NCBI GenBank assembly: GCA_001794435.1
Contig: MGJU01000014.1
Location: forward strand, 27,494-91,493
DNA length: 64,000 nucleotides
DNA from: Candidatus Yanofskybacteria bacterium RIFCSPHIGHO2_02_FULL_43_17
Lineage (GTDB): Bacteria; Patescibacteriota; Minisyncoccia; 2-02-FULL-40-12; GWA2-44-9
Direction of reading: 5' to 3'
Shown here: piece after piece, positions 3,394 to 57,451 of the stretch
Layout: every line of letters starts with the position of its first letter
How positions within the stretch are numbered: the stretch's first letter is position 1
The notes under the pieces: generated by a model
The model's input: only the letters and a program-made list of their open reading frames with translations
What the model was told of the DNA's origin: nothing
The model's database searches: none
Translations under genes and position numbers: made by a program

Positions 3394-4149
3394 TTGTATA
3401 ATAGGGTTATGTCCCCCGTTTACGCGGCAACATTAGTAACCCTCGGCCTCGCGCCCAGTTTGGTGTGGCTTTCTTTTTACCTAAGAAGAGACTGCCATCC
3501 GGAACCAAAGCATCTCCTAACCAAAGCATTCTTAATGGGGATCATCATCTCCCCTCTCGCTATTTTGCTCCAGTTGGGATTTGCCGAGCTTAGAACCCTG
3601 ATCGGCTTAGAGATTTTCAGCCAGGGCACGCCCACGTTTTTTCTGTGGTCTTCGTTTGTGGAAGAATTTCTGAAATTTTTTGCCATTTATTTGGTGATTT
3701 TAAGGAGTCCGGAATTCGATGAACCGGTTGACGGGATGATATATATGATAACTGCCGCTCTAGGATTCGCCGCCATAGAGAACATACTGGTAATGTTAAA
3801 CCTCATTCCAAACGGCGCCGGTACCGCCCTCAATACGCTGGCCCTCCGATTCATAGGAGCAACACTTCTTCATGCGCTGGCTTCGGGGCTTATAGGTTAT
3901 TTCCTGGCTATGTCCTGGTTCTTTCAGGAACACAAAAAGAAATTGATAGTGTTCGGACTCGCCATCGCGACGCTTTTCCACGCGGCATTCAATATGCTTA
4001 TCGCTTTCGCGCAGGAATCAGCCAATCCCGTCGTCGGTCTGGTCTACACCACCTTCCTGTTAATAATTCTGGCCTTTTTAGTTTCCGTATTATTTGATAA
4101 AATAAAAGAGAGGCACATACATTCACAATCTCTAAATCCTAATTTCTAA
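3394..4149 (+). CDS. PrsW-like intramembrane metalloprotease (CAAX-protease-like)
   Basis: polytopic membrane protein with EEFLKF, FAAIEN and H motifs typical of the PrsW family. Confidence 0.6.
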   Translation: MYNRVMSPVYAATLVTLGLAPSLVWLSFYLRRDCHPEPKHLLTKAFLMGIIISPLAILLQLGFAELRTLIGLEIFSQGTPTFFLWSSFVEEFLKFFAIYLVILRSPEFDEPVDGMIYMITAALGFAAIENILVMLNLIPNGAGTALNTLALRFIGATLLHALASGLIGYFLAMSWFFQEHKKKLIVFGLAIATLFHAAFNMLIAFAQESANPVVGLVYTTFLLIILAFLVSVLFDKIKERHIHSQSLNPNF

Positions 4150-4216: not shown

Positions 4217-4651
4217 ATGGACGATTTTTTTTCTGATGACAACAATGAATTAGATCCGATCCTGGCAGTTTCCGAAAAGTCCGCCCCAAAGAAGCGAGAT
4301 CTCGCTCTTAACGAGGGTGATTTCGACGGCCAACTGACAGTTGACGTATACCAGACCGAGGATGACATCGTCGTCCAGTCAACCATAGCCGGAGTCGACC
4401 AGAACGATATAGATATAACCGTCACAAACGATATGGTTACAATAAGGGGCAAAAGAACAACGCCGGACAAGGTAAAATCGTCTGATTATTACTATCAGGA
4501 GCTATTCTGGGGGCCTTTTTCAAGATCAATAATCCTGCCCGAGGATGTTGATTCTGATAATTCAAGGGCATCAATGAAGAACGGGCTTTTGACCATACGC
4601 CTGCCCAAATTGGCCAAAACACGAACGAAAAAAATAAAAATATCGGGATAA
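4217..4651 (+). CDS. Hsp20/alpha-crystallin family small heat-shock protein
   Basis: alpha-crystallin domain pattern (GLLTIRLPK C-terminal strand). Confidence 0.85.
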   Translation: MDDFFSDDNNELDPILAVSEKSAPKKRDLALNEGDFDGQLTVDVYQTEDDIVVQSTIAGVDQNDIDITVTNDMVTIRGKRTTPDKVKSSDYYYQELFWGPFSRSIILPEDVDSDNSRASMKNGLLTIRLPKLAKTRTKKIKISG

Positions 4652-6348: not shown

Positions 6349-6688
6349 TCCTCCACCTCCCTTCCGCGAAATTTGCCCATGAGGAGTTGCTGAAAGCAGC
6401 CGAATAGCTGCAAATTTCAGCGTCCCGCTCTATCTGGAATCGAAGCTGCAGAATAATACTAGTCAAGACGAAGTCGGTAATTTCACAAAGTCCTGACTGG
6501 CCTATTGCTTTGACTCTAGATAGAGCGGGGTTCCTCGTGTTTTTAACTTACCTTCATTATATCAAATACAAATAAATTTGGTAGTAACCCCGCACCAATC
6601 TTATCCGCTGACCGCCATTAAGAAATGAGGCGGGATTGGAGCGGGGTTAAGTGTTTGTCGCCAATCGCTTCGCTCTTGGACAAACAAC

Positions 6689-7099
6689 TTAATAAATACA
6701 CGTTCCTATAATCGGAATCCTTACGGTACAGAAGAAGTCAAGGGTTATTACAGAAGCTATTGTCTGGATAATTACTCCGACACCGAAAATAATCGCCGCA
6801 CCGATAATACCGCTTCTCAGTCGCGCTTGGGCGGCCGTTACTTTGGTCGCATCATCTCCAGCATACATATATGTCACCCCGCTCCAGATGATGAATATCA
6901 CTGTCAACAAAGCGCTAACTGTGATGAAAAATGTGCTGACCCGAAATATTACATAATCCAAAACATCTAGGGTGATCGGATTGCCCGGAAGCAGGCCCTG
7001 ACTGCCGGCTCTGGAACTTGGAACATTTACAACCATCGCCGGCAATACGTAAGCCAGAAAAATGAATAGTGACGAAACTGTCCGTAATATTTTTTTCAT
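6689..7099 (-). CDS. T4SS pilin-like small membrane protein, paralog 2
   Basis: same C-terminal module (IIWSGVTYMYAGDDATKVTAAQ...GAAIIFGVGVIIQT); start taken at MKKILRT. Confidence 0.55.
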   Translation of the reverse strand: MKKILRTVSSLFIFLAYVLPAMVVNVPSSRAGSQGLLPGNPITLDVLDYVIFRVSTFFITVSALLTVIFIIWSGVTYMYAGDDATKVTAAQARLRSGIIGAAIIFGVGVIIQTIASVITLDFFCTVRIPIIGTCIY

Positions 7100-17962: not shown

Positions 17963-18037
17963 TCGCTCAAATATTATCCTCACTCTCAACCTTCGCTTCA
18001 AAATAATTCTTCTTCAACACACCTCTTGCCACTCGAA

Positions 18038-18243
18038 GCCATCCCCATTTTCATCACGGATTTCTCATAGAGCAATCGCGATTCGCTCCTAATTTTTCTG
18101 ACCGCCCGAAGCCACTTCCGTCAGGCCATGCGGTCCCGCCAAGGCGGGACCGTTCCTGACACCTTCGGCTCGGTTTCTCAGAAAAACAGCGTCGCTCATC
18201 TGCAACTGCTGTCTATTCGTCATAGTGATTCAAATAGGGATGG
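18038..18243. ncRNA. structured element copy 1 (candidate ncRNA, identity unknown)
   Basis: ~85% identical core to 56945-57147; central GGTCCCGCCAAGGCGGGACC hairpin; closing stem differs in sequence from copy 2 but keeps pairing (covariation). Confidence 0.45.
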
Positions 18244-18538
18244 CTCTTCGCTGGCTGGTTGACAAGTTAAGCTAAAACCTCCAGGGAGCAAGACCACCAG
18301 ACAATTTTTCTAGCGTTTACGCTTCTTTACTACAAATCCGAGATATTTGAGAGATAATGCGGTCCGCATTATGACCAAATATCGAAGGATTTGTTAACGA
18401 AGCGGAAGGCGTAAAAAATTGTCTGGCGGTCTCGCGACTGACCATAGCACACACCCCCCGACCTTGACTGAAGTTATATTTTACTATATACTATATTCAT
18501 CGTTTCGTTCCTTAACCAAGACAAGAAAGGACTGGGAA

Positions 18539-19246
18539 GTGGCGACAAAAAGAGCAGCCACCGTCGCAACCCTCGGGCCGGCAGTCCGGCTCGTAGTGTT
18601 CAAGTTTTTGATGAGAAGTGAGCTGGTGCCGGACTACATCCCCCGGTTGCCTAGCAACCGTTCCAGCGTTGCGCCGGCATATAACGGTACGCAGGTTTTG
18701 CCGTCCACGCCCGACGTGTGGCTGGCTGACCTGCGAGCCGGATTGCTCAACACCAAGGGCGACTACGCGTTCGTCGGCGCGAGAGTCGCCGATGAGAGAA
18801 CAAATACAAAGAGAAAGGTCAGGAGGGGAGGACTCGTTGAGATTGTCGAAGTCAAGATCAGCGATGTGCGATTCACATTCTGTCGCCGCCGGCATCTGAC
18901 CGACGATCCGCCTCCTCACGAGAACTTTGTGGAGAGGTTCAGTCAACTGGTTAACACCTTCGTTGACTTCACCAAGTCAAACCTCTGGATGACAGAGGCA
19001 TATCTCAATCCGTACCTGAACAAAGACGGCACTACCGGCAAAGGCAGCGTGCTGATGATTGACTGCGCCGGACGGAAATCGGCTGTCAATCCGGATGGTA
19101 CTCCGATCATGGTCTTCGAAGGTGGGCGAGAAAAATCGTCCGCTCCCGGTATGATCGGTCAGGGCATCGGCCCAAAGATTTCGATCCTGAACAAGGCCAG
19201 CGAATTGAAACTCGTCGGCAAGAATGTTCAGTTGATTACCAGATAA
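18539..19246 (+). CDS. hypothetical protein on GC-rich island 1
   Basis: GC ~60% ORF with GTG start after AAAGGA; no recognisable motif; followed by terminator. Confidence 0.5.
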   Translation: MATKRAATVATLGPAVRLVVFKFLMRSELVPDYIPRLPSNRSSVAPAYNGTQVLPSTPDVWLADLRAGLLNTKGDYAFVGARVADERTNTKRKVRRGGLVEIVEVKISDVRFTFCRRRHLTDDPPPHENFVERFSQLVNTFVDFTKSNLWMTEAYLNPYLNKDGTTGKGSVLMIDCAGRKSAVNPDGTPIMVFEGGREKSSAPGMIGQGIGPKISILNKASELKLVGKNVQLITR

Positions 19247-19279
19247 ATATTCGAGCGGATTATGTCCGCCGGCCCCTCA

Positions 19280-19315
19280 CCTTTCAGTAGAAAGGTGAGG
19301 GGCTTTAAAATTTTA
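19280..19315 (+). terminator. intrinsic terminator
   Basis: GCCCCTCACCTTTCAGTAGAAAGGTGAGGGGC followed by TTT. Confidence 0.7.
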
Positions 19316-19356
19316 GGAGGTTGACCCAGCTCTTGGGAAGCTTATATTATGCTCTT

Positions 19357-19626
19357 ATGTATTTTGTGTATGTATTATCTCTAAGCAACGGCCAGATTTA
19401 CATTGGTTTTACCAAAGACCTTAAGAAAAGAATTGAAGAGCATAATAACGGCAAGGTTTTTACTACTAGCAAGTATCTACCAATCAAACTTGTATACTAT
19501 GAATGCTATTTATCTAGAGAAGATGCCAAGATTAGAGAAACCATGATTAAAAAATTTGGTAGCACATACTCCCATCTTAAGAAAAGAATTTATTACTCTA
19601 TTAAAGCTTCCCAAGGGCGGGGTTGA
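19357..19626 (+). CDS. GIY-YIG domain nuclease (stand-alone, ~89 aa)
   Basis: YVLSLSNGQIYIGFTKDLKKRIEEHN GIY-YIG core; low GC unlike flanks. Confidence 0.75.
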   Translation: MYFVYVLSLSNGQIYIGFTKDLKKRIEEHNNGKVFTTSKYLPIKLVYYECYLSREDAKIRETMIKKFGSTYSHLKKRIYYSIKASQGRG

Positions 19627-19753
19627 CCCCGCTCTTGAAGAGAGGTTGCCTGTGGCAGAACCATCCCATTTATACGTTCTACTGATAAACACAGAATGAG
19701 TTGTTCAAAACTATTTTATTAAAAACATCCTCTCTTCAAGAGCGGGGTTGACA
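19611..19753. repeat. inverted-repeat element of the TTCAAGGGCGGGG-TTGAC family (arms 19611-19645 and 19729-19753, ~80-bp AT-rich spacer)
   Basis: arms CCAAGGGCGGGGTTGACCCCGCTCTTGAAGAGAGG / CCTCTCTTCAAGAGCGGGGTTGACA; right arm ends in a -35 hexamer. Confidence 0.7.
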
Positions 19754-19775
19754 AAATTTGTGAGAAGAGTATAAT
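19748..19775 (+). promoter_or_regulatory. sigma70-type promoter (TTGACA-16-TATAAT)
   Basis: perfect consensus hexamers with 16-bp spacer. Confidence 0.7.
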
Positions 19776-19967
19776 ACATTTAGAACATTAAATACTACCG
19801 GAGCAGAAAAGAGGCGACTTGAAGCCAATCTAGAAATGTCGAAATTATAGATACATCGATATTTTGGCCCCAAATCCCCTCTTTTCTGCAACCCGCTCCG
19901 TCACGAGCGGCGGAGCCAGGGAGGGGTTCGTCAACGACGTCAACGCCCACTGGGCAAAGGAGGCCAC

Positions 19968-20774
19968 ATGGCCACGAAGAAGGTTCGGAAGATGAAGAAG
20001 GACGAGATCCCGGTCACAGCCGGAGAACTCTCGGACATCGAGAAGCAAGACCTGGCGGCGACAGCGCCCGCCGACGACAAGGGCGACGGCGAAGCGAGCG
20101 ATCGCCTGCCGTACCACACGTTCGAGCCGGAAGTCTTCCAGCGCTGGACCCGACACGAGAACGGCCTCCACTTGGTCCCGAAGTACCGCTGGGACATGGT
20201 CGCACGGCTGAACGGCGGCCCGCTCTCGGTGGCCAACACCGAGCGGATCGTTCGGGTCGACCCGGCGCTGGGTCGGGCGACGTGCGGATTCCTCGGGCAT
20301 GGGAAGGAGTTCGTCGCCTATATGGTGGCGTTCATCCTGAACAAGCCGGGGCAGGAGGGTCAGCTGATGACTCGTGACAAGTACGTCACAACGGACAACC
20401 CCGAGGGGGTTGTCTACATGGGCTGCGTCGTCCGCGTCAAGGACGAGAACAACCACGTGGTTCCTCTCACGTGCTGCCCCGAGCACGTGGAAGCGGCCCA
20501 GAACGCCGTCGAGCTGGCCTCGGCCCGTCGCGACAAGGACGGAAAGATCGTCGAGCGCGGCTTCCGTCCGCCGGCCCAGTCGATGGGCCAAGCCCTCATC
20601 GACATCCAGGCCATTGTGACCAAGGCCGAACAGCGCCGCGACGAGACCCAGAAGGCCGTCGAGGCCTACGGTGGCAAGCGGCGAGAGTTCGGTGGGAGTC
20701 CCCACATGGCAACCAGCGGCCGCCAGGGCCGCGAGCGCGACCCGCGCGAGCGGAGCATCGGGAACCGCGGCTAA
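19968..20774 (+). CDS. hypothetical protein on GC-rich island 2
   Basis: AAAGGAGG RBS then ATG; GC ~62%; Cys/His cluster CGFLGHG...CCPEH; no known domain recognised. Confidence 0.5.
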   Translation: MATKKVRKMKKDEIPVTAGELSDIEKQDLAATAPADDKGDGEASDRLPYHTFEPEVFQRWTRHENGLHLVPKYRWDMVARLNGGPLSVANTERIVRVDPALGRATCGFLGHGKEFVAYMVAFILNKPGQEGQLMTRDKYVTTDNPEGVVYMGCVVRVKDENNHVVPLTCCPEHVEAAQNAVELASARRDKDGKIVERGFRPPAQSMGQALIDIQAIVTKAEQRRDETQKAVEAYGGKRREFGGSPHMATSGRQGRERDPRERSIGNRG

Positions 20775-20794
20775 CCCCGCGTTCCCGAGCACGC

Positions 20795-20850
20795 AACCCG
20801 GAAGGAGGGTGGAGGCACAACCTCCTTCCCTTCTTCCGGGTCGTTTTAAT
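20795..20850 (+). terminator. intrinsic terminator
   Basis: CCCGGAAGGAGGGTGGAGGCACAACCTCCTTCCCTTCTTCCGGG then TCGTTTT. Confidence 0.6.
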
Positions 20851-21132
20851 ATTTACCCGAGCGCAACGAAGTGAGCACGGTTGTAAATATTAACCCCGCA
20901 CTAATTTTGCCGACTACTCTGATAAGAATATTGAGCTAAGGACTACTTATTTAACACTCGCAAAGCGCGAGGGCCGAATAGGCCCACCCCTTATGGGCGC
21001 AGCACTTTGCCATAATAAAATCACAAAATTATTGCTGGGGTAATAAGTATTTACTAATGAAATTTTAAAACAAAGATTTTATTAGCTAGTACTTATACAA
21101 TCGGGAAGAGAACGGGAAGGGAAGGAGGCTAA

Positions 21133-22599
21133 GTGAAGACCACGAGGAGTTGGTACCGCCAGCTTGGCGAGTACCGGACGAACAAAGCTGGAAAGAAAAT
21201 TAGAGGCGTCATTGGCACCACGATGCATTTGTTCCGCATTTGCGGAAAGAATATCATCATTGAATGCGGCATCGGCTTTGACAGGAACGGTGAGTTTCAG
21301 GCCCAGTACGTACCCGATGGCAACTGGCTTATCGGAACTCATATTGATTTGATCATCCTCACCCACAAGCACCTGGATCATTCGGGGGCAATTCCCCGTC
21401 TTGTGTGGCATCACCCGGAAGCGCTGGTGTTGATGTCGGCCAAATGTTTTGACGGCACAGTGATAGCCGTTGAAGATTCTTTGAAGATCTGGCGCAACGA
21501 GGCGAATAACGCCGAGCGGAATGGTTTGCCCGTTCCGGAGCCGATCTTCACAGAAGAAATGGCTGAAGCGTTTTTCAATAACCCCAACTTGAGGGTGTTC
21601 AATCCTCCTTACTGGCTTGATCCGCAGGAAGACCTTCGCGGTCAGTGGCCGGGATGGGAAATTGGATTCTACGGTGCCGGTCACGATACCGGCGCAGTAT
21701 CTGTCTACATGATCCGACCGGATGGTAAGTATCTCTATCTGACCGGCGATATTGCCAGCCATGACGGAGAGAACGCCCGCGGTGTTCTTCTGCCGCCTGA
21801 CGACTTCCTTGGCGACTTCTTTGACCGTCCCGGAACGATGGTCACCGAAGCGACCAACGGCGGCCGCCGGATGGAAAAGCCGCGCAGTCAACTGGATGAA
21901 GAGCTCAACCGATTTATCAAGTCGGTTGATGCAAAAGGGGGCATTCTCCTGTGCGCCGAATTCGCGGGCACCAAAAGCGGCAACATGATGGTCAAGCTGA
22001 ATAATCTTGGCTACAAAGTTGTCGTTGACGGACTTGCCCGCCGGCATATCCGGGTTGAGGTTCCGGATGTTGACCAGAGGATCAGGGACGGCCGAGTCGT
22101 GTTCATTGAAGAACGCGACCAAGAGCTCGCGTGGAAACAGCGGGCCGACTACGCCGCCGGCGTTCACGGCTTTGTGTCCATAATCGCCGCGTCGGGTTCT
22201 ATGGATCAGGGCTTTGCCGCATCGGCATACGGGCCCGTGATCCTTGAGGGTGAGAAAAACGCTGTTGTCTTCACAAGCCATATCTTTGATGACTCCACCA
22301 CGCAACGACTGCTCAATATCAAGCGTGGTCGGACGATTAAGATGAAAAAGTTCGTCAACGGACGGCTCGAGCCGATTCGAGTCAATGTCCGTTGTGAAGT
22401 TAGACATTTCGGCTACTCGTCGCATGATTATCAGGACGGGTTAGTCGAGCGAGTCCGGCTCGCAAGACCGGAGGAGACGCTCATTGTCCACCACTGCCCG
22501 GGCAAGGCAACGTTTGACGCCTTTGCCGAACGAGTGAATTCCCTGCCCCCTCCCCCGAAAACAATCTGGGGACTCAATGGCAGAAAGATATTTATTTAA
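21133..22599 (+). CDS. MBL-fold hydrolase, beta-CASP-like putative nuclease (GC-rich island 2)
   Basis: THKHLDHSG HxHxDH motif, later GAGHDTGAV and YSSHD motifs; AGGAGG RBS then GTG start. Confidence 0.6.
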   Translation: MKTTRSWYRQLGEYRTNKAGKKIRGVIGTTMHLFRICGKNIIIECGIGFDRNGEFQAQYVPDGNWLIGTHIDLIILTHKHLDHSGAIPRLVWHHPEALVLMSAKCFDGTVIAVEDSLKIWRNEANNAERNGLPVPEPIFTEEMAEAFFNNPNLRVFNPPYWLDPQEDLRGQWPGWEIGFYGAGHDTGAVSVYMIRPDGKYLYLTGDIASHDGENARGVLLPPDDFLGDFFDRPGTMVTEATNGGRRMEKPRSQLDEELNRFIKSVDAKGGILLCAEFAGTKSGNMMVKLNNLGYKVVVDGLARRHIRVEVPDVDQRIRDGRVVFIEERDQELAWKQRADYAAGVHGFVSIIAASGSMDQGFAASAYGPVILEGEKNAVVFTSHIFDDSTTQRLLNIKRGRTIKMKKFVNGRLEPIRVNVRCEVRHFGYSSHDYQDGLVERVRLARPEETLIVHHCPGKATFDAFAERVNSLPPPPKTIWGLNGRKIFI

Positions 22600-22618
22600 C
22601 GGCATTTGCCGCAAACCA

Positions 22619-22644
22619 CCCCCGACCGCAAGGTCGGGGGTTTT
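22619..22644 (+). terminator. intrinsic terminator
   Basis: CCCCCGACCGCAAGGTCGGGGG then TTTT. Confidence 0.7.
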
Positions 22645-22647
22645 AAC

Positions 22648-22778
22648 TTGACCCCGCCCTTGAAGTCAGAATCTAAAGATTTTTTCTTGATCATGTTGCT
22701 ATTTATTAAATAGTCATAATTTGTTTGAAGAAAATAGTATTTGCTGGAAGCAATCTGACTTCAAGGGCGGGGTTGACC
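22648..22778. repeat. inverted-repeat element of the TTCAAGGGCGGGG-TTGAC family (arms 22648-22670 and 22754-22778)
   Basis: TTGACCCCGCCCTTGAAGTCAGA ... TCTGACTTCAAGGGCGGGGTTGACC; right arm gives TTGACC-17-TGTAAT promoter. Confidence 0.7.
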
Positions 22779-22823
22779 AACAAATCAATTTATGTAATAA
22801 TACTTTCAAGGAGGGCCGAGCTA

Positions 22824-23693
22824 ATGGCCAGATGGGGAAAACCCAAAACAGTTGACTGGAGAGGAGTACCGTCTTCTCCGACGTCATTTTGTATCTTTCC
22901 AATTAGAGACGCGGCATTCTCGCCGGAATTGAATATTTGGCTGGTTTATAATCATGCCGATAAAGGCAGAAAAAACCCGTTGGCTCAACTTTTAGGATTC
23001 GATCCCCAACAACAAGGGGGTGGTAGAAAAAAGGGCAAGCCGGCCGCTTACGGAATGCCCGGAGGCGGACTCAATCCGGAATGGCTTGAGACGGCAGAAG
23101 GTGCTGCCGTCAGAGAAGGCAGTAACGAAAGCGGGGTAAAGGTCATCCGGGCCCGTTTAATTCCTGTTCCGGGGGAAAAGAACAAGGCCCTGATATTAAA
23201 CAAGAAGACCGGCGAACGGACTCGTCCGGAGATAATGTATGCGGATGGACAACAGGTTCACATTGAACTAATGCCGAACGAGAAACTTCTTCTAAATCCG
23301 ATGAACTACTACCTCGCCGAAGTTGATTGGTTCAACTCAAAGGTCAGAGAATTTCTTCTCAACCTTAAGAATAACCTTATTGCGGAAGGCGCCTGCACCG
23401 CAGAAGATATCGCTCGCGAAGGAATCAGTATAAATACCCTCACCCGAGAAGAGCTTCTCGCGCTTGGAGTGGATGAGGAGGAAGTGGGTAAGATAAGCGA
23501 CCCCGAAGAAGTGTGTGAAATTGGCGGATTCGCTCTTCTGCCGGTAAGCTTGCTCCGCGATATGTGGGAGAGCAAGCGGTTCTACTTGAACCCCGAAGAA
23601 GACCGGGAAAATCCTTTGGATCCGACTACGTATGTGTACTACAGCCACGTAAAGCGAATCCTGGAAGGCCTAGACCTAATGGGCGTTGCCTGA
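22824..23693 (+). CDS. hypothetical protein
   Basis: AAGGAGG RBS then ATG at 22824 (MARWGKP); upstream ORF extension overlaps the promoter element; terminator at 23716-23745. Confidence 0.5.
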   Translation: MARWGKPKTVDWRGVPSSPTSFCIFPIRDAAFSPELNIWLVYNHADKGRKNPLAQLLGFDPQQQGGGRKKGKPAAYGMPGGGLNPEWLETAEGAAVREGSNESGVKVIRARLIPVPGEKNKALILNKKTGERTRPEIMYADGQQVHIELMPNEKLLLNPMNYYLAEVDWFNSKVREFLLNLKNNLIAEGACTAEDIAREGISINTLTREELLALGVDEEEVGKISDPEEVCEIGGFALLPVSLLRDMWESKRFYLNPEEDRENPLDPTTYVYYSHVKRILEGLDLMGVA

Positions 23694-23778
23694 CCCTGTC
23701 GTTTTTTTTCAAAAATAAGGAGCACGCAACGCTCCTTCTTTTTATAACTAAGCCCGTTGTGTTAAAATAAAAAATCAA

Positions 23779-25587
23779 ATGAAAACTATTCTAAAATATA
23801 TTCTTATCGTATTTGTATCGCTATTTGTTCTGGCGGCTTTGGTGTCTTTGTTTGAATCTCCCGAAAAATCAGTCATTCCCCTTTCAGAACTGGTGAATAA
23901 GATAAACCGAGGAGAAGTGGAGAGCGTGACTCTCAAAGAAAATTTGCTTGAGATAAAAACTGTCAGCGGCGAGTTGTTGGAAACAAAGAAAGAAACATCC
24001 GTATCCGCTTTCGAGACACTCGCTAATCTTGGCGCCGAGAAAGACAAGCTATCGGCAATACGAGTTGAGGTCAAAGATGCCAGCGGATTTGCGGTAATTC
24101 TCAGATCGGTATTACCCATAGTTCTGCCGTTTCTTCTGATACTTTTTATCTTTTGGTTTATGTTCAGCAAAGCCCAGCAAGGTTCAATGCAGGCATTGTC
24201 CTTCGGAAAAACAAAGGCGCGGCTGGCAAACATGATCGGCAAAAGAAAAGTTATGTTCAAGGATGTGGCCGGACTGACAGAAGCGAAGGAAGAGATATCG
24301 GAAGTGGTTGAATTTTTGAAAGATCCCCAGAAATTCCACAAACTCGGCGCAAGAATACCGCGAGGCATTATGCTTGTCGGTTCTCCGGGAACCGGAAAAA
24401 CTCTCCTAGCCAAAGCCGTCGCCAATGAAGCCGATGTTCCCTTTTATTTCGTTTCGGGTTCGGAATTCGTAGAAATGTTCGTTGGCGTGGGCGCAAACAG
24501 GGTAAGAGACACCTTTGAGCTGGCCAAGAAAACATCGCCTTCGATCATCTTCGTAGATGAGATAGACGCCGTAGGCCGTCACAGAGGCGCGGGTCTTGGC
24601 GGAGGCCACGACGAAAGAGAGCAGACATTGAATCAAATACTGGTTGAGATGGATGGTTTTGATACCAACGACGCCGTGATTGTAATGGCCGCGACAAACA
24701 GACCCGATATTCTTGACCCGGCCCTTTTAAGACCGGGTCGTTTTGACAGGAGAATAATCTTGGATGAGCCGTCAATGAGAGACCGCGAAGACATATTAAA
24801 GATCCACTCGCTGGGCAAACCAGTATCACCAAGCGTAAACCTTAAAATAGTTGCGGAAAGAACACCGGGATTTTCCGGAGCCGATCTGGCAAACTTAGCC
24901 AACGAAGCAGCGATACTGGCGGCAAGAAAGGGTCGAGCTCAGATAAATCAGGACGACTTCTTTCAAGCAATAGAAAAGGTCATTCTCGGTCCGGAGAGAC
25001 GAAGCCATATACTTTCAAAAAAGGAAAAAGAGATAACCGCTTATCATGAGGCCGGGCACGCCTTAGTTGCCGTATCGATTCCCCACTCCGATCCGGTACA
25101 CAAGGTCTCTATTATATCCCGGGGACGAGCGGGCGGATACACTTTGAAGTTGCCAAGCGAGGACAAACACATGAGATCTAAAGCAGAATTTGAATCGGAG
25201 CTGGCTGTGCTTCTCGGCGGCTATGCCGCGGAGAAAGCCATATTCAAAGACACAACTACGGGAGCAACCAACGACCTAAGAGTAGCTTCCGATCTTGCCA
25301 GAAAGATGGTAACCCAATTCGGTATGTCGGAAAAATTGGGACCGATAACCTACGGCGAGAAAGACGAGCTGGTGTTTCTTGGCAAAGAGATGGGACACAC
25401 CAAAAATTACTCCGAAACAATCGCCTACCAAATAGACAACGAGGTTAAAAAACTTGTCTCAAAAGGTCTGGCAACCGCTAAAAAAGTACTCACTCAAAAA
25501 ATAGGTGCTCTCCACAAAATCGCTAAAGAACTCCTGACCAAAGAAACTCTCGAACAAAAAGAATTCTATTCTCTGGTCAGAGGGTAA
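23779..25587 (+). CDS. ftsH: ATP-dependent zinc metalloprotease FtsH
   Basis: [15 protein letters not shown] Walker [11 protein letters not shown] Walker [10 protein letters not shown] zinc site, N-terminal TM. Confidence 0.95.
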
Positions 25588-36148: not shown

Positions 36149-36622
36149 ATGTTTATTCTGAATATTTTCTCAAGGATGCACAAATCGATAAGACACAAGG
36201 TTACTACCCAAGAACCCGGTCTTTATGTTTCTCTGATATTTCCCATTGCCGTCGCCTTCTTGCTTACATTTACGGTTGCCAGAGTTATCAGTTATCTTGT
36301 CCCCTCTCTTGGTGTATTTATAAACGACTTCAGAGTTCATCATTTTACTTGGGGTATTTTTATTTTGGCTGTTTCTGGCTATCTGGCATTGGTATTTGAC
36401 GAAGCCAGGGCCAAATATCTCATCTCGCTTCTTTATGGCTTCGGTTTGGGCCTTACCTTTGACGAATTTGCTTTTTGGCTTAAGTTAACCGATGACGATC
36501 CGGCGCGTTGGAGTTACGACGGATTTCTTTTAGTTGCCGGCTTTTTATTCTTGATCATCTCGGCAAAATCCGGAGTAAAAATGCTCAAAAAACTGTGGCC
36601 CTTTAGGGGGTTGACTTTTTGA
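36149..36622 (+). CDS. hypothetical membrane protein
   Basis: three to four TM helices. Confidence 0.45.
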   Translation: MFILNIFSRMHKSIRHKVTTQEPGLYVSLIFPIAVAFLLTFTVARVISYLVPSLGVFINDFRVHHFTWGIFILAVSGYLALVFDEARAKYLISLLYGFGLGLTFDEFAFWLKLTDDDPARWSYDGFLLVAGFLFLIISAKSGVKMLKKLWPFRGLTF

Positions 36623-36735
36623 CTCGAATCTGCTATACTTATAGCATAACCTCAAGAAGGGTCTAAATACAAAGAGATGGCTTGCTAAGCCGTTTTTTTG
36701 TACCCAAATTAATCCTTTCCAGAGGCAAAAATATG

Positions 36736-39981: not shown

Positions 39982-40232
39982 CAGATATCCTTAACTAGAG
40001 TCCGTACTGGCGACTTCGTATTTACACGGCATAAAATCTTCACCCCGTTTTACGGGAAGTGAAAATTCATTACTCTTCTATTATACAGAAGAATAGGCTT
40101 GCCGCAACAAGTATCGGGTCGCTGGTTCACCCCGCACTTAACGAGGGTCGGCAAAAACAGCCGTTAAGAGCTTGTCCTCGTTAAGTGCGGGGTTCAAACA
40201 AAAACTGTCGCTTCAAGCGACAGTTTTTGTTA
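39982..40232 (+). ncRNA. candidate small RNA (ORF-free transcript between consensus promoter and terminator)
   Basis: no ATG-initiated ORF; 17-bp perfect stem CCCCGCACTTAACGAGG/CCTCGTTAAGTGCGGGG; ends at AAAAACTGTCGCTTCAAGCGACAGTTTTTGTT. Confidence 0.4.
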
Positions 40233-42744: not shown

Positions 42745-42917
42745 GCTGGCTTACAACTTACGACTTACAACCTACAACTTTTTGTTGTTGGTAATTAGTA
42801 GTTGGTCGTTGATTAAAGAAGAAGCCCGCCACTCAGCGGACTTATCAGTATGTTTAAATGATATCAAATTTTTAAAAAAGCGTCAACCCCTCGTCTCTTA
42901 TCCACAAATTTTACTTT

Positions 42918-42990
42918 ACCCCGCTCTTGAAAAGAGTTAGAAGAGATTAGTTTTGTAAACAAGGGTTTAATAACTTTTCAAGGACGGGGT
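42918..42990. repeat. short member of the TTCAAGGGCGGGG inverted-repeat family
   Basis: ACCCCGCTCTTGAAAAG ... CTTTTCAAGGACGGGGT with ~40-bp spacer, between divergent nusA and pilB. Confidence 0.55.
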
Positions 42991-43140
42991 TTACAAAAAG
43001 GTTGGTCAGTTAGAGTCCTGTTTATAGTCTTGGTTATAAGAAATGTTAAAGTTTAGTTATGCTGAGTAGTAGATTTTTCGGCTACGGCTTAGCGGTAACC
43101 AAGTCAGATTATTTTTTAACTGCAAAAATCACTATCTAGT

Positions 43141-44814: not shown

Positions 44815-44862
44815 CCACTAGCCAATAGCGATTAGCCACCCCGCCAGGGCGGGGTCGCTAAT
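44813..44862. repeat. GC-rich extended hairpin immediately after the stop codon (family of three)
   Basis: GCCACTAGCCAATAGCGATTAGCCACCCCGCCAGGGCGGGGTCGCTAAT; paralogs at 54674-54730 and 55429-55485. Confidence 0.6.
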
Positions 44863-44867
44863 TAGAA

Positions 44868-45031
44868 GAACCCTTATAATCTGTAGGCAAAACCCGAGCC
44901 ATAAAAACACGGGGGCAGGATAATTCCGAGGAGTAAGCCAGTCGAAACCAACTTATCCAAACTAAGATAGCATCCCGGTTGGACCTACGTATTAAAATAC
45001 TCAATCCAATTGCCTACAGATTATAATGGTT
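44868..45031. repeat. 164-bp element bounded by 22-bp inverted repeats
   Basis: AACCCTTATAATCTGTAGGCAA ... TTGCCTACAGATTATAATGGTT; internal ORF-free. Confidence 0.55.
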
Positions 45032-45135
45032 CTTTACGCTATATTTTAAGTTAAAAAATAGCGAATGTCAACCCCGCCCTTGAAATAGGGTGGCCCCAGC
45101 AATAATCAAAATTATCGCAATAAATTACAAATTCT

Positions 45136-46284
45136 ATGGAAGCAGATAACAAACACGACAATCATTCTTCAAATACCGCTCTCAAGGACGGGGTCAATCA
45201 CTCAAACTTAACCCCCAAAGCCGCTATGGACGACCAGGTCCTGGACAATGCACTCCGGCCCAAGACATTTGGCGAATATGTCGGGCAGGACAAGATTAAG
45301 GAAAATCTGAGAATAGTCATCGGGGCGGCGAAGAAAAGACGGGAACCCGTGGAACACCTGCTGTTTCATGGCCCTTCCGGGCTTGGAAAGACAACTCTCG
45401 CTTATTTGGTGGCAAAAGAACTGGGAGCTGACATCAGGATAACTTCGGGCACAGCCCTTGAAAAAGCCGGAGATGTCGGTTCAATCCTGACCGGCCTTAA
45501 TGACGGCGATGTTATCTTTATCGACGAGGTGCATCGCCTTAACAAAGCCGTTGAGGAAGTGATATATCCGGCTATGGAGAACTTCAAGCTGGATATAGTC
45601 ATTGGAAAAGGCAATTCCGCAAAGACACTACAAATAGATCTTCCTCGTTTCACTCTTATTGCCGCCACAACTAAAATCTCAATGCTTTCAGCCCCCTTTA
45701 GATCAAGGTTTGGGGTTAATTTCCGGCTCGACTTCTACAACCAAGAGGACATCGAAGAAATCATATCAAGGTCAGCACATCTGCTTGGCGTAGATATCAA
45801 AAAAGAAGCCGTCAAAGAGGTAGCTCTTGCTTCAAGATTCACGCCCAGAGTTGCAAATCGTCTTCTGAAGAGAGTCCGTGACTTCAGCCAAATGAATCCA
45901 GTTAGAGGTAAGACGCCCCTCAAAGAGGGGTCGTCTGCCGACCACGCCATTGCGGCGGGTCGGACCTCTAACGGGATGAATGACACTTATATCACTGCTG
46001 AAACCGCCAAAAGTGCTTTAAAAATGCTTGAGATAGACGACAAAGGACTCGAGGAAACAGACAGAAAAATTCTGTTAGCCATAATCAACAACTTCGATGG
46101 CGGTCCTGCCGGTCTCAAATCTATTGCTGCATCTATTTCAGAAGAAGAAAGTACAATAGAAGATGTTTACGAACCGTACTTGATGCAGATGGGATTTCTC
46201 GCAAGAACTCCGAAAGGAAGGATTGTCACCTCCCGAGGATTTGAGCACTTAGGACTAAAAAACAATAAACCGAAGTTGTTATGA
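45136..46284 (+). CDS. ruvB: Holliday junction branch migration helicase RuvB (N-terminal extension and internal insertion)
   Basis: LRPKTFGEYVGQ, GPSGLGKTTLA Walker A, IFIDEVHRL Walker B. Confidence 0.9.
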   Translation: MEADNKHDNHSSNTALKDGVNHSNLTPKAAMDDQVLDNALRPKTFGEYVGQDKIKENLRIVIGAAKKRREPVEHLLFHGPSGLGKTTLAYLVAKELGADIRITSGTALEKAGDVGSILTGLNDGDVIFIDEVHRLNKAVEEVIYPAMENFKLDIVIGKGNSAKTLQIDLPRFTLIAATTKISMLSAPFRSRFGVNFRLDFYNQEDIEEIISRSAHLLGVDIKKEAVKEVALASRFTPRVANRLLKRVRDFSQMNPVRGKTPLKEGSSADHAIAAGRTSNGMNDTYITAETAKSALKMLEIDDKGLEETDRKILLAIINNFDGGPAGLKSIAASISEEESTIEDVYEPYLMQMGFLARTPKGRIVTSRGFEHLGLKNNKPKLL

Positions 46285-54365: not shown

Positions 54366-54493
54366 TTGACCCCGCCCTTGAAAAGCAGTGTAATAGTTAA
54401 CCAGCCATCAAAAAATACTTTTAGGAATATTTTATTTAGTTTGAAATAAAATTTCTACAAATCCTGGGCTGCTTTTCAAGGGCGGGGTTGACC
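54366..54493. repeat. inverted-repeat element of the TTCAAGGGCGGGG-TTGAC family between divergent dnaA and rpmH
   Basis: TTGACCCCGCCCTTGAAAAGCAG ... CTGCTTTTCAAGGGCGGGGTTGACC; left arm TTGACC-17-TGTAAT, right arm TTGACC-17-TAAATT. Confidence 0.7.
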
Positions 54494-54673: not shown

Positions 54674-54730
54674 TAGCGACTAGCGACTAGCCAATAGCGA
54701 CCCCGCCTTGGCGGGGTGGCTAGGGGCTAT
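54674..54730. repeat. GC-rich post-stop hairpin (family member)
   Basis: GCGACTAGCGACTAGCCAATAGCGACCCCGCCTTGGCGGGGTGGCTAGGGGC. Confidence 0.6.
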
Positions 54731-55428: not shown

Positions 55429-55485
55429 TAGCCACTAGCCAATAGCCACCCCGCCAAGGCGGGGTCGCTAGTGGCTAGTCGTTAG
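55429..55485. repeat. GC-rich post-stop hairpin (family member)
   Basis: TAGCCACTAGCCAATAGCCACCCCGCCAAGGCGGGGTCGCTAGTGGCTAGTCG. Confidence 0.6.
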
Positions 55486-56198: not shown

Positions 56199-56458
56199 GT
56201 AGTTGTCCAAGAGGACGAGCGTTTTACGCGAAGTCCGATTGGCTACAAGTACTTACCCCGCCCTAACTTTGCTATCGAAAACAAGAAAATCAATAGTATA
56301 AAGTATAGAGCATTGTACACGAAAGCGCGGCGGACCCTGAATAAGGGATTCCGCCAAAAGCGGAATTGGCTATTCGCCACCGCTGGCGCCGTCAATTCAA
56401 TGGCAAAGTTAGAGCGGGGTGGTAAGTTTGTAGCTATTCGCTTCGCTCATAGACAAAT

Positions 56459-56944: not shown

Positions 56945-57147
56945 ACCCCAGCTACTCTTTTCTCACGAACTCCTCATAGAGCAGTTACGATTCGCTCCTA
57001 ATTTTTCTGACCGCTCGGGGTCACCCCTGTCAGGCCATGCGGTCCCGCCAAGGCGGGACCGTTCCTGACATCCCCGACTCGGTTTCTCAGAAAAATGTCG
57101 TCGCTCATCTGCAACTGCTAACTACTCGTCATCAAGTGAGAAAAGAG
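56945..57147. ncRNA. structured element copy 2 (paralog of 18038-18243)
   Basis: shared core with compensatory stem changes; 12-bp closing stem CTCTTTTCTCAC/GTGAGAAAAGAG. Confidence 0.45.
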
Positions 57148-57451
57148 AAGCAAGGGTTTCGCTCCTTGTCATTTAAATCTGAGCAACACCTATCGCAATT
57201 TTATCACTTGACGAGCCCGCCAAAGTTTTCCAATGGAAAATTTAGGCGGGCGAGTCAAGAAAACTTATGAGAGTGAGGCGGATTTTATCTGAAATCATAG
57301 GTCGAACGCCCAGCCCCTCTTTTCAGAGAAAAGAGGGGCTGGGAGGCAAGAGAGGGTTACCTGTGATTTTAGAACATAAACCCTGCTCTATCTTGAGTAA
57401 GTTTTTGAAGGTGAGGAATCGTGATAAAATTGCGATAGAAGTTGCGAGCGA

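Follow-up and report, generated by a model that had tools for sequence, protein, structure and literature searches.

What are the inverted repeats that adjoin promoters along a 64,000-nt stretch of Candidatus Yanofskybacteria bacterium RIFCSPHIGHO2_02_FULL_43_17 (contig MGJU01000014.1; hereafter the window), and why does one of them enclose the gene of a small GIY-YIG nuclease? The results indicated that the repeats are probably the terminal arms of small palindromic DNA elements of the repetitive extragenic palindrome (REP) or MITE (miniature inverted-repeat transposable element) kind, that these elements occur Patescibacteria-wide and insert at the TTGA of -35 boxes, and that the nuclease may be of the Ssn type. 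We came to this reading because the direct flanks covary, orthologous sites differ in the presence or absence of the element, loops lie in both orientations and the arms pair as a stem. Throughout, E1-E6 denote the elements of the window, and L-numbers (L021, L034, L050 and so on) are labels of compared contigs or loci.

The sequence TTCAAGGGCGGGG was found at no more than two mismatches at 15 sites in the window against 1.8 expected, an approximately 8-fold enrichment that none of 100 shuffles reached, so that the inverted-repeat motif described in an earlier note on this DNA is real. Pairs were established by reading these sites together with an inverted-repeat scan, and the three full pairs and one short pair listed in that note were confirmed (arm pairs in Table 1). 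Two arms that it had considered solitary proved to have partners. The arm at 19319-19340 belongs to a 25-nt arm (19319-19343) that is 84% complementary to 19604-19628, the two enclosing a GIY-YIG open reading frame (ORF), and the arm at 45067-45084 is paired with a degenerate arm at 45181-45193. Beside this nuclease-bearing copy, E6, the window contains five further copies of the repeat without the nuclease. E6 and E1 stand in tandem with one TTGA in common, E4 lies between nusA (minus strand) and pilB (plus strand), and intrinsic terminators lie directly upstream of E2 (22620-22645) and of E6.

The repeats had been regarded as specific to this genome, with restriction to the 64-kb region named as the refuting case; neither describes their distribution. 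An exact 18-mer, TTCAAGGGCGGGGTTGAC, was found together with the matching left arm in metagenome-assembled genomes (MAGs) of Saccharibacteria, Parcubacteria and Wolfebacteria, among many Patescibacteria MAGs with the family. Matches to the 18-mer in genomes outside the Candidate Phyla Radiation (CPR) were isolated, lay inside coding sequence of high-GC organisms and had no left arm, and the viral contigs searched for the 18-mer gave no exact match. A metagenome search with a flank-neutral gapped pattern (core-N70-100-core) matched 48 contigs, of which 39, many of them from groundwater, carried the family. These repeats are structured, widespread and CPR-specific hairpin elements.

About nine of the matched contigs, from the human gut, carried pairs of hairpins of an unrelated family, with AAGGGCGGATA as arm extension and GGTGGTGGGTTAG as flank, and were left out. 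This other repeat, seen in L036, L044, L048, L049, L053, L054, L061, L063, L069 and L071 (mostly human-gut contigs), consists of paired self-contained hairpins (CCCCGCCCTTGAAAAGGGCGGATA..) beside a conserved GGTGGTGGGTTAGC, and has the 13-mer in common only by chance of design.

The anatomy of the family was assessed on 53-56 non-redundant elements, comprising those of the window, 12 CPR genome loci and 39 metagenome contigs. The layout is TTGA / CCCCGCCCTTGAA / N6 / loop / N6' / TTCAAGGGCGGGG / TTGA C. In place of the arms of 17-25 bp described earlier, each arm (19-20 bp) consists of a nearly invariant 13-nt core followed by exactly six variable, complementary base pairs. All four bases are used at the six N6 positions, yet these positions are paired in 87-96% of elements. 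Position 20 is paired in 8% of elements and never has G on the left side; its pairing is below the chance level of about 33% that we estimate for its base compositions. In a formal count of pairing, 96.3% of cells are paired, with 145 double-sided changes compared to 42 in shuffles (0 of 500 shuffles reached the observed count), and the pairing collapsed when the partner was slid by one column. The stem mismatches comprised 15 G.T, 12 A.C and 20 others, with no strand-specific wobble bias.

Loop lengths ranged from 3 to 270 nt. Element lengths cluster at about 121, 60, 30 and 300 nt, and the non-coding loops at about 83, 22 or fewer than 10 nt. An all-against-all blastn of the loops revealed no general similarity, in agreement with the earlier description of the spacers as unrelated in sequence, and none between the short loops and the nuclease gene. 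Many loops begin with UNCG-like tetraloop hairpins (TTGCC-TTCG-GGCAA). As single-stranded DNA (ssDNA), E1-E3 gave folds of -29 to -33 kcal/mol (z -7.6 to -9.8), with E1 at -29 kcal/mol (z=-7.6).

The 4-mers flanking the elements were direct: they were identical in 38 of 56 elements and inverted in 1 of 56. They also covaried, with 32 TTGA/TTGA pairs, 5 TTTA/TTTA pairs and no mixed pair (Fisher p=2e-6), and the TTTA pairs represent no fewer than four independent loci. The 4-bp flanks behave like a target-site duplication. The consensus of the right flank is TTGACa and goes on, at positions 24-29 past the right arm, as T-A-t-a-a-T, which is a -10 box spaced by 17 nt. A score of at least 5/6 for a -10 box was reached by 43% of the copies (24 of 56) and by 7% of shuffled flanks. 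A -10 box at the start of the loop, which would make the left arm an internal promoter, was no general feature (mean score 3.14 vs 3.07 in shuffles) and was confined to a subset, namely TGTAAT in E3 and its orthologs and TATATT and TTATTA in two nuclease-bearing copies. The -10 spacing reported in the earlier note for both arms thus held after the right arm and failed as a rule after the left, and its tie of the repeats to -35 hexamers and operon boundaries was statistically supported. Both promoters that it had spelled out were confirmed, the perfect one beside E1 (Table 1) and TTGACC-17-TGTAAT at 54366-54394, which starts from the left arm of E3. On the 3' side, E2 is followed by TTGACC and an extended -10 TGTAATAAT, and E3 by TTGACC-17-TAAATT and then rpmH; E5 has TTGA/TTGA flanks on the minus strand, with TTGACA-17-TAAAAT directed leftward. 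What the elements target is the TTGA(C) within a -35 hexamer of the sigma-70 type, and the right TTGA stands in register with the host -10 box, so that the promoter survives. The GC-skew profile was too noisy within 64 kb for a comparison with element orientation relative to replication.

Two copies (L078 1612-1732; L039 196-314, minus strand) overlap a type IV pilin-like gene at its 5' end. The loop contains the start codon and, together with the right arm, codes for a leader peptide (..NSRAG) directly before the FTLIE processing motif, and the TTTA flank spans the Phe-Thr codons, an in-frame residence of the kind seen in Rickettsia palindromic elements (RPEs).

Orthologous sites differed in occupancy. 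Five of the compared loci (L034, L050, L055, L079 and L081) share synteny with the window, their nucleotide identity to it being about 70%, and L093 is a closer strain. The E2 site of L093 is empty (..gcacTTGACggataaactaacttaTGTAATAAT..) and has a single TTGAC (cTTGAC-15-TGTAATAAT), and the window has ..aacTTGA[121 nt]TTGACcaacaaatcaatttaTGTAATAAT.. before the same gene; terminal inverted repeats with covarying direct 4-mers and an empty site with a single target copy are what is seen in MITEs. In addition to that at the E2 site, three further polymorphisms were found, one of them possibly a deletion remnant. The nuclease-bearing element of L050 (299 bp) is 74% identical to E6 and lies at another locus, inserted at the TTGA of a promoter whose window ortholog (36610-36640, GTTGAC-17-TATACT) has one -35 box; L055 has an extra 60-nt element beside its E3 ortholog; and the element at L050 6790-6889 has no counterpart in the window.

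Two features of L093 were noted in addition. Its identity to the window is 93% up to about 20850 and about 75% from there on, which suggests a possible mosaic or recombination boundary. In place of the terminator upstream of the empty E2 site, L093 has a perfect palindrome (4330-4372) with a DnaA-box-like TTATCCACA on both arms (cctgtggataaacgacttcgcaagtcgtttatccacagg), and TTATCCACA also occurs just left of E4 in the window (42896-42906).

The interior of the elements was found in both directions. A loop subfamily, TTGCY-N3-4-RGCAA ... CTTTAGAT, accounts for 16 of 53 elements; set against the TTGA/-35 direction, 10 of these face one way and 6 the opposite way. E1 and E2 represent the two orientations, with the E2 loop inverted. 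Likewise, the direction of the nuclease gene agrees with that of the flank in Parcubacteria and is opposite to it in Saccharibacteria L114. Since the loop subfamily and the gene both occur both ways, internal orientation is independent of flank orientation, as expected if the TTGA derives from the target.

Other copies have been retained. E3 is kept in four genomes (orthologs in L034, L055 and L079), with compensatory N6 changes (aagcag / gagtag / gaatag). E5 is kept in four (orthologs in L050, L055 and L081) and E4 in two (L050 3470-3549), both of them decaying. The window repeat at 40129-40193 is the diverged ortholog of a canonical element at L050 6585-6647, and its core substitutions are compensated on the opposite arm.

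The ORF in the E6 loop encodes a protein whose C-terminus (..SQGRG) and stop codon are contributed by the right arm plus TTGA, and the right arm encodes SQGRG and the stop in three genomes. GIY-YIG ORFs of 84-97 aa lie between the arms in five genomes (the window, L021, L050, Azambacteria L082-L091 and Saccharibacteria L114), with one nuclease copy, in one context, per organism. They carry only PF01541, and the catalytic columns Y, Y, G, R, H and E are invariant. The window protein is 74% identical to an Azambacteria protein, and its homologs point to Parcubacteria. Parcubacteria and Saccharibacteria proteins are 67% identical and their arms are identical, which may indicate either lineage-to-lineage transfer or strong constraint. 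Outside CPR, the window protein is 41% identical (6e-12) to a Shinella plasmid homolog surrounded by four hairpins of the published SRM pattern, and profile-profile comparison (hhalign) with the SRM-flanked Rhizobiaceae family gave a probability of 98.3%. In a search with the Shinella homolog aimed at Neisseria SsnA, the matches listed were all from Rhizobiaceae. The best-matching solved structures for the window protein were UPF0213 proteins.

Distant GIY-YIG homologs without these arms, 46-48% identical to the window protein, were seen in Roizmanbacteria-type contigs (L102-L113). On one side they have a duplicated 5' half of a tRNA (in L108) and on the other an intact tRNA, which we read from the anticodon loops as Gly-GCC or Lys-TTT. 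A series of 7-bp hairpins (such as CCATGTC-GGAT-GACATGG) precedes them, and an identical protein of this type occurs in at least four different downstream contexts. In Azambacteria (L083 3290-3880), the promoter adjoining the nuclease-bearing element is directed into a GC-rich, apparently non-coding region of about 550 nt with no Rfam match, in which short ORFs were called in some loci. The distance to the next called gene varies by sample, with fmt at 3703 vs 3882, a 179-bp difference.

From its relatives and its setting, the nuclease would be a structure- and sequence-specific ssDNA nuclease of the Ssn type, and we infer that it drives the mobility or maintenance of the elements. When the DNA becomes single-stranded, during replication or transformation, the arms would close up into a stem of 20 bp, which on the strand that does not carry the promoter would bear an unpaired (T)GTCA tag and a CAA tail, the layout of the hairpins that Ssn enzymes bind and cut beside. 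A cut by the nuclease at the stem base, followed by host repair or ligation, could then excise the element or insert it at TTGA sites. The association with -35 and -10 boxes would reflect target choice and the survival of harmless insertions and not the binding of a regulator, and a -35 box would tolerate the insertion since TTGAC, in register with the -10 box, would be restored by the duplicated TTGA.

Several results weigh against these elements being mobile, nuclease-associated insertions. The nuclease is linked to movement only by the association of the GIY-YIG gene with the elements. The window protein is about as similar to UPF0213 structures (E~2e-5) as to the plasmid-borne homologs, and the SRM pattern (HGTCWYN0-2YYVSBRHN0-5WNVSBRGN0-2RNCYNB), which gave four matches around the Shinella homolog, gave none in the window, the resemblance being limited to the GTCA tag and a C-rich stem start. 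To our knowledge, GIY-YIG enzymes hydrolyse DNA and have no strand-transfer activity. The short loops have no similarity to the nuclease gene and do not come from its simple internal deletion; an origin of the short elements as MITEs by internal deletion of the GIY-YIG copy was dropped on this blastn result. N6 differs in all copies, so that they are not recent copies of one master, and the sharp 6-bp limit has no mechanistic explanation. At 36596-36616 the window faintly resembles fused arm ends (18 nt), and the empty site there may be a deletion remnant. Finally, several copies with perfect arms are kept at orthologous sites in genomes only about 70% identical. A repeat that is purely selfish and decaying accounts for this less well than selection at host level or concerted evolution does, and the perfect arms of such old copies may be due to concerted evolution, to a function for the host or to correction templated by the hairpin.

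This retention is also what speaks for a vertically inherited host promoter module, in which the hairpin or cruciform, or a protein bound to the arms, would be a conserved part of CPR promoters, such as a terminator-promoter insulator or supercoiling sensor, and the GIY-YIG gene a homing-type invader of some copies. The perfect arms of E3 and E5 where genes are about 70% identical, the compensatory N6 changes in E3, the constant position between an intrinsic terminator and a -35 box, and the identity of the motif across CPR phyla would all follow. We nevertheless consider such a module unlikely, given presence and absence at otherwise intact orthologous promoters, direct 4-bp flanks that covary as target duplications do, loop orientation independent of promoter direction, the two copies inside a pilin coding region, and the decay of E4 and E5 in both lineages. 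Moreover, with an 80-nt loop, cruciform extrusion in duplex DNA is very unfavourable. The paired binding sites for a regulator or nucleoid protein suggested in the earlier note leave the complementary N6, the covarying 4-bp flanks, the empty sites and the nuclease gene in the loop unexplained, and its divergent promoters are excluded because TTGAC is carried by only one strand at either end.

Still less probable is a transcribed structured RNA whose 20-bp stem forms a helix around a variable domain, for example as a site of RNase III processing or as a small-RNA scaffold. Strong covariation over a fixed helix of about two turns and the tetraloop hairpins at the start of many loops are in keeping with an RNA, and the TTGA/TTGA flanks of the plus strand could pair as U-A, U.G, G.U and A-U. 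Variant TTTA/TTTA flanks, however, are direct repeats and not compensatory pairs; E2 and E6 each have a terminator immediately upstream, the left arm has no promoter before it, the mismatches lack a strand-specific wobble bias, and the loop occurs in both orientations. A search of Rfam 15 returned only tRNAs at the gathering score for the window, with only sub-threshold miRNA-hairpin matches (also at E<=1) and no family for the element. Because the ssDNA folds, the absence of wobble bias, the upstream terminators and the lack of an Rfam family were taken together, we favour a DNA hairpin over an RNA hairpin. Sites of the integron attC type, or of other tyrosine or serine recombinases, bounding cassettes are scarcely credible: the size of 60-130 bp, conserved ends, variable middle and ssDNA hairpin logic resemble those of integrons, TTGA could act as a crossover core, and the earlier suggestion of recombination sites pointed rightly to something mobile, but the elements form no arrays and stand singly by housekeeping genes (rpmH, ruvB, nusA/pilB), their ends (GTCAAC / GTTGAC(C)) do not fit the R'' RYYYAAC and R' GTTRRRY cores, and no integrase was seen beside any copy, the only recurrent cargo being the GIY-YIG nuclease.

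Within the preferred reading of REP/MITE-like elements that insert at -35 boxes, a stronger claim is tentative and rather doubtful, namely that the unit of about 300 bp (TTGA, 19-bp arm, 89-aa GIY-YIG gene, 19-bp arm, TTGA) is an autonomous ssDNA transposon that works through a hydrolytic nuclease and host repair. If true, no smaller autonomous mobile element would be known, and prokaryotes would have their first DNA transposon powered by a GIY-YIG enzyme; the unit would home to the -35 box with a duplication that preserves the host promoter, its non-coding derivatives would have colonised a large share of CPR promoters, and it would supply the missing 'transposase' of the CGTC-tagged REP superfamily. 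The positions of all features are collected in Table 1.

Table 1. Elements, promoter, target site and nuclease gene located in the 64,000-nt window.
Feature	Positions	Strand	Parts	Basis or remark
E6, nuclease-bearing copy	19321..19626	+	left: TTGA 19321-19324, core CCCAGCTCTTGGG 19325-19337, N6 aagctt 19338-19343, then loop; right: N6' 19604-19609, core CCCAAGGGCGGGG 19610-19622, TTGA 19623-19626, common to E1	inverted-repeat scan, site reading
GIY-YIG ORF, single-domain, 89 aa	19357..19626	+	E6 loop	Pfam PF01541, E=1.6e-13
E1	19623..19751	+	core 19627-19639; N6 gagagg; 83-nt loop, start TTGCC-TGTG-GCAG; N6' cctctc; core 19735-19747; TTGA 19748-19751	121 nt between TTGA repeats; arm pair 19627-19747
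Promoter adjoining E1	19748..19775	+	-35 TTGACA 19748-19753; 16-nt spacer; -10 TATAAT 19770-19775	
E2	22648..22776	+	TTGA; core 22652-22664; N6 gtcaga; 83-nt loop; N6' tctgac; core 22760-22772; TTGA	arm pair 22652-22772; inverted-repeat scan, ssDNA fold
Unoccupied or possible deletion-remnant target	36596..36640	+	single GTTGAC -35 box, 17 nt, TATACT	
Diverged family member	40129..40193	-	ACCCCGCACTTAACGAGG / CCTCGTTAAGTGCGGGGT	inverted-repeat scan, orthology to L050 6585-6647
E4	42915..42993	+	flanks TTTA/TTTA; cores 42919-42931, 42977-42989	short (71 nt), decaying; arm pair 42919-42989
E5	45068..45197	-	cores 45072-45084, 45181-45193 (second arm degenerate)	122 nt, decaying
E3	54366..54491	+	core 54370-54382; N6 aagcag; 80-nt loop starting TGTAAT; N6' ctgctt; core 54475-54487; TTGA 54488-54491	dnaA/rpmH intergenic region; arm pair 54370-54487

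Other repeats and structured regions were seen in the window. Two copies of an element of about 210 nt (18037-18245 and 56945-57157) are about 86% identical over an interior of about 180 nt. They contain a GC-rich hairpin (GGTCCCGCCAAGGCGGGACC), have closing stems that are complementary but not conserved in sequence, and gave no Rfam match; they may be an undescribed structured RNA or another repeat family. An inverted repeat at 44866-45034 (minus strand), with 25-nt arms that are 96% complementary and 119 nt apart, has a hairpin (ACCCCGCCAGGGCGGGGT) after it and is situated just downstream of E5's outward promoter (TTGACA-17-TAAAAT). It is about 76% conserved in syntenic relatives and has no Rfam match, and this region is a candidate non-coding RNA of about 200 nt. 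Three short hairpins, ACCCCGCC-NN-GGCGGGGT, at gene 3' ends (44838-44855, 54700-54717 and 55448-55465) have similar flanks (ctagccaatagc...gctag..) and a stem base in common with the arms of the main family, and may be terminators or a short-form repeat. Long hairpins at 56255-56420 and 6587-6647 have the same ACCCCGC/GCGGGGT base with differing arm sequences and are followed by a common motif, GTTTGTnGC..TCGCTTCGCTC..GACAAA (6648-6690 and 56421-56458), which looks like a second, related hairpin family. The region 18000-24000 has a GC content of 52.5% compared to 44% overall, and contains ORFs without Pfam matches.

Among known systems, the Ssn nucleases with their NTS/SRM hairpins and the CGTC/TGTC-tagged REPs come closest. 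Ssn enzymes are single-domain GIY-YIG proteins of about 94 aa that bind a hairpin repeat (NTS/SRM) and cut the adjacent ssDNA on one strand only, leaving dsDNA and RNA uncut, and their genes (Neisseria SsnA; Chenal et al. 2025) are typically flanked by the repeat on both sides (PMC11893778). The CPR family likewise has a single-domain GIY-YIG gene of about 90 aa bracketed by a repeat that is also dispersed in intergenic DNA, and in both the hairpin has an unpaired GTC-containing 5' tag that gives polarity (CGTC / ATTCCCGCG.. in Ssn, (T)GTCA / ACCCCGCCC.. in CPR). The hairpin loop is dispensable for Ssn cleavage, for which two half-oligos are enough (PMC11893778), and this fits the family's loops of any length. 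Unlike the flanks of Ssn genes, which are two self-contained hairpins of 8-9 bp each, the flanking repeats in CPR are two halves of one 20-bp stem with the gene inside the loop, and the inner 6 bp of this stem are free to vary. Target-site duplication, empty sites and -35 targeting are seen in the CPR family and are unreported for Ssn/NTS. CPR were outside the RefSeq sampling of Chenal et al. 2025 and are absent from its text; its authors likened the repeat-Ssn-repeat unit to an insertion sequence, with mobility hypothesised and not shown (PMC11893778).

The CGTC/TGTC-tagged REPs are the same repeats as NTS/SRM; their stem is 8-9 bp long, their tail is CCA, and they were described as "lacking a dedicated transposase". 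dRS3 and Rickettsia RPE-4/6 belong to this superfamily (Di Nocera et al. 2013; PMC3733652). Read on the strand that does not carry the promoter, the CPR arm is (T)GTCA / ACCCCGCCC...GGGCGGGGT / CAA, the same tag-stem-tail layout. The two have in common the tag, a stem starting with A, a C-A-type tail, intergenic location and occasional in-frame residence in genes (RPEs there, the pilin leader in CPR). They differ in that the REPs have stems of 8-9 bp with loops of 4-5 nt and lie mostly downstream of genes, whereas the CPR elements have a 20-bp stem with loops of 3-270 nt and adjoin -35 boxes.

Compared to REPs, bacterial interspersed mosaic elements and REPtrons with their REP-associated tyrosine transposases, the CPR family similarly has one 'domesticated-looking' enzyme gene between inverted copies of a dispersed hairpin repeat and tetranucleotide-specific sites, with recognition of an ssDNA hairpin that is probable for CPR. 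However, the REPtron enzyme is an HUH tyrosine transposase (IS200/IS605-type) and the CPR enzyme a GIY-YIG hydrolase; the CPR elements are flanked by a 4-bp duplication, of which IS200/IS605 makes none; and the CPR arms pair with each other, whereas each REPtron repeat is a palindrome. With bacterial MITEs (Neisseria Correia, ERIC, RUP) the family has in common a length of about 60-130 bp, terminal inverted repeats, a short target duplication, intergenic location, interplay with promoters and both orientations. Within a MITE family the interior is normally conserved, whereas conservation in the CPR family is confined to the arms and to short motifs at the loop ends; the arm's inner 6 bp covary in place of being conserved, and the partner enzyme is not a DDE transposase.

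Both papers leave the question of what spreads CGTC-tagged hairpin repeats and whether the repeat-nuclease-repeat Ssn unit is mobile (PMC11893778, PMC3733652). The CPR family provides the first comparative signs of movement for such a unit, namely a target duplication, an empty site, nuclease copies at different loci and both orientations, and reveals an unusual target, the -35 hexamer. It marks a sizeable share of promoters in Patescibacteria, which have almost no experimentally mapped ones, and thereby offers a handle for promoter annotation. The 20-bp split hairpin, in which a 6-bp segment is free, suggests that the nuclease recognises its substrate in a partly programmable way, which makes the pair of interest for ssDNA tools. 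The feature is a variant of Ssn/SRM and CGTC-REP-like systems that was not previously described.

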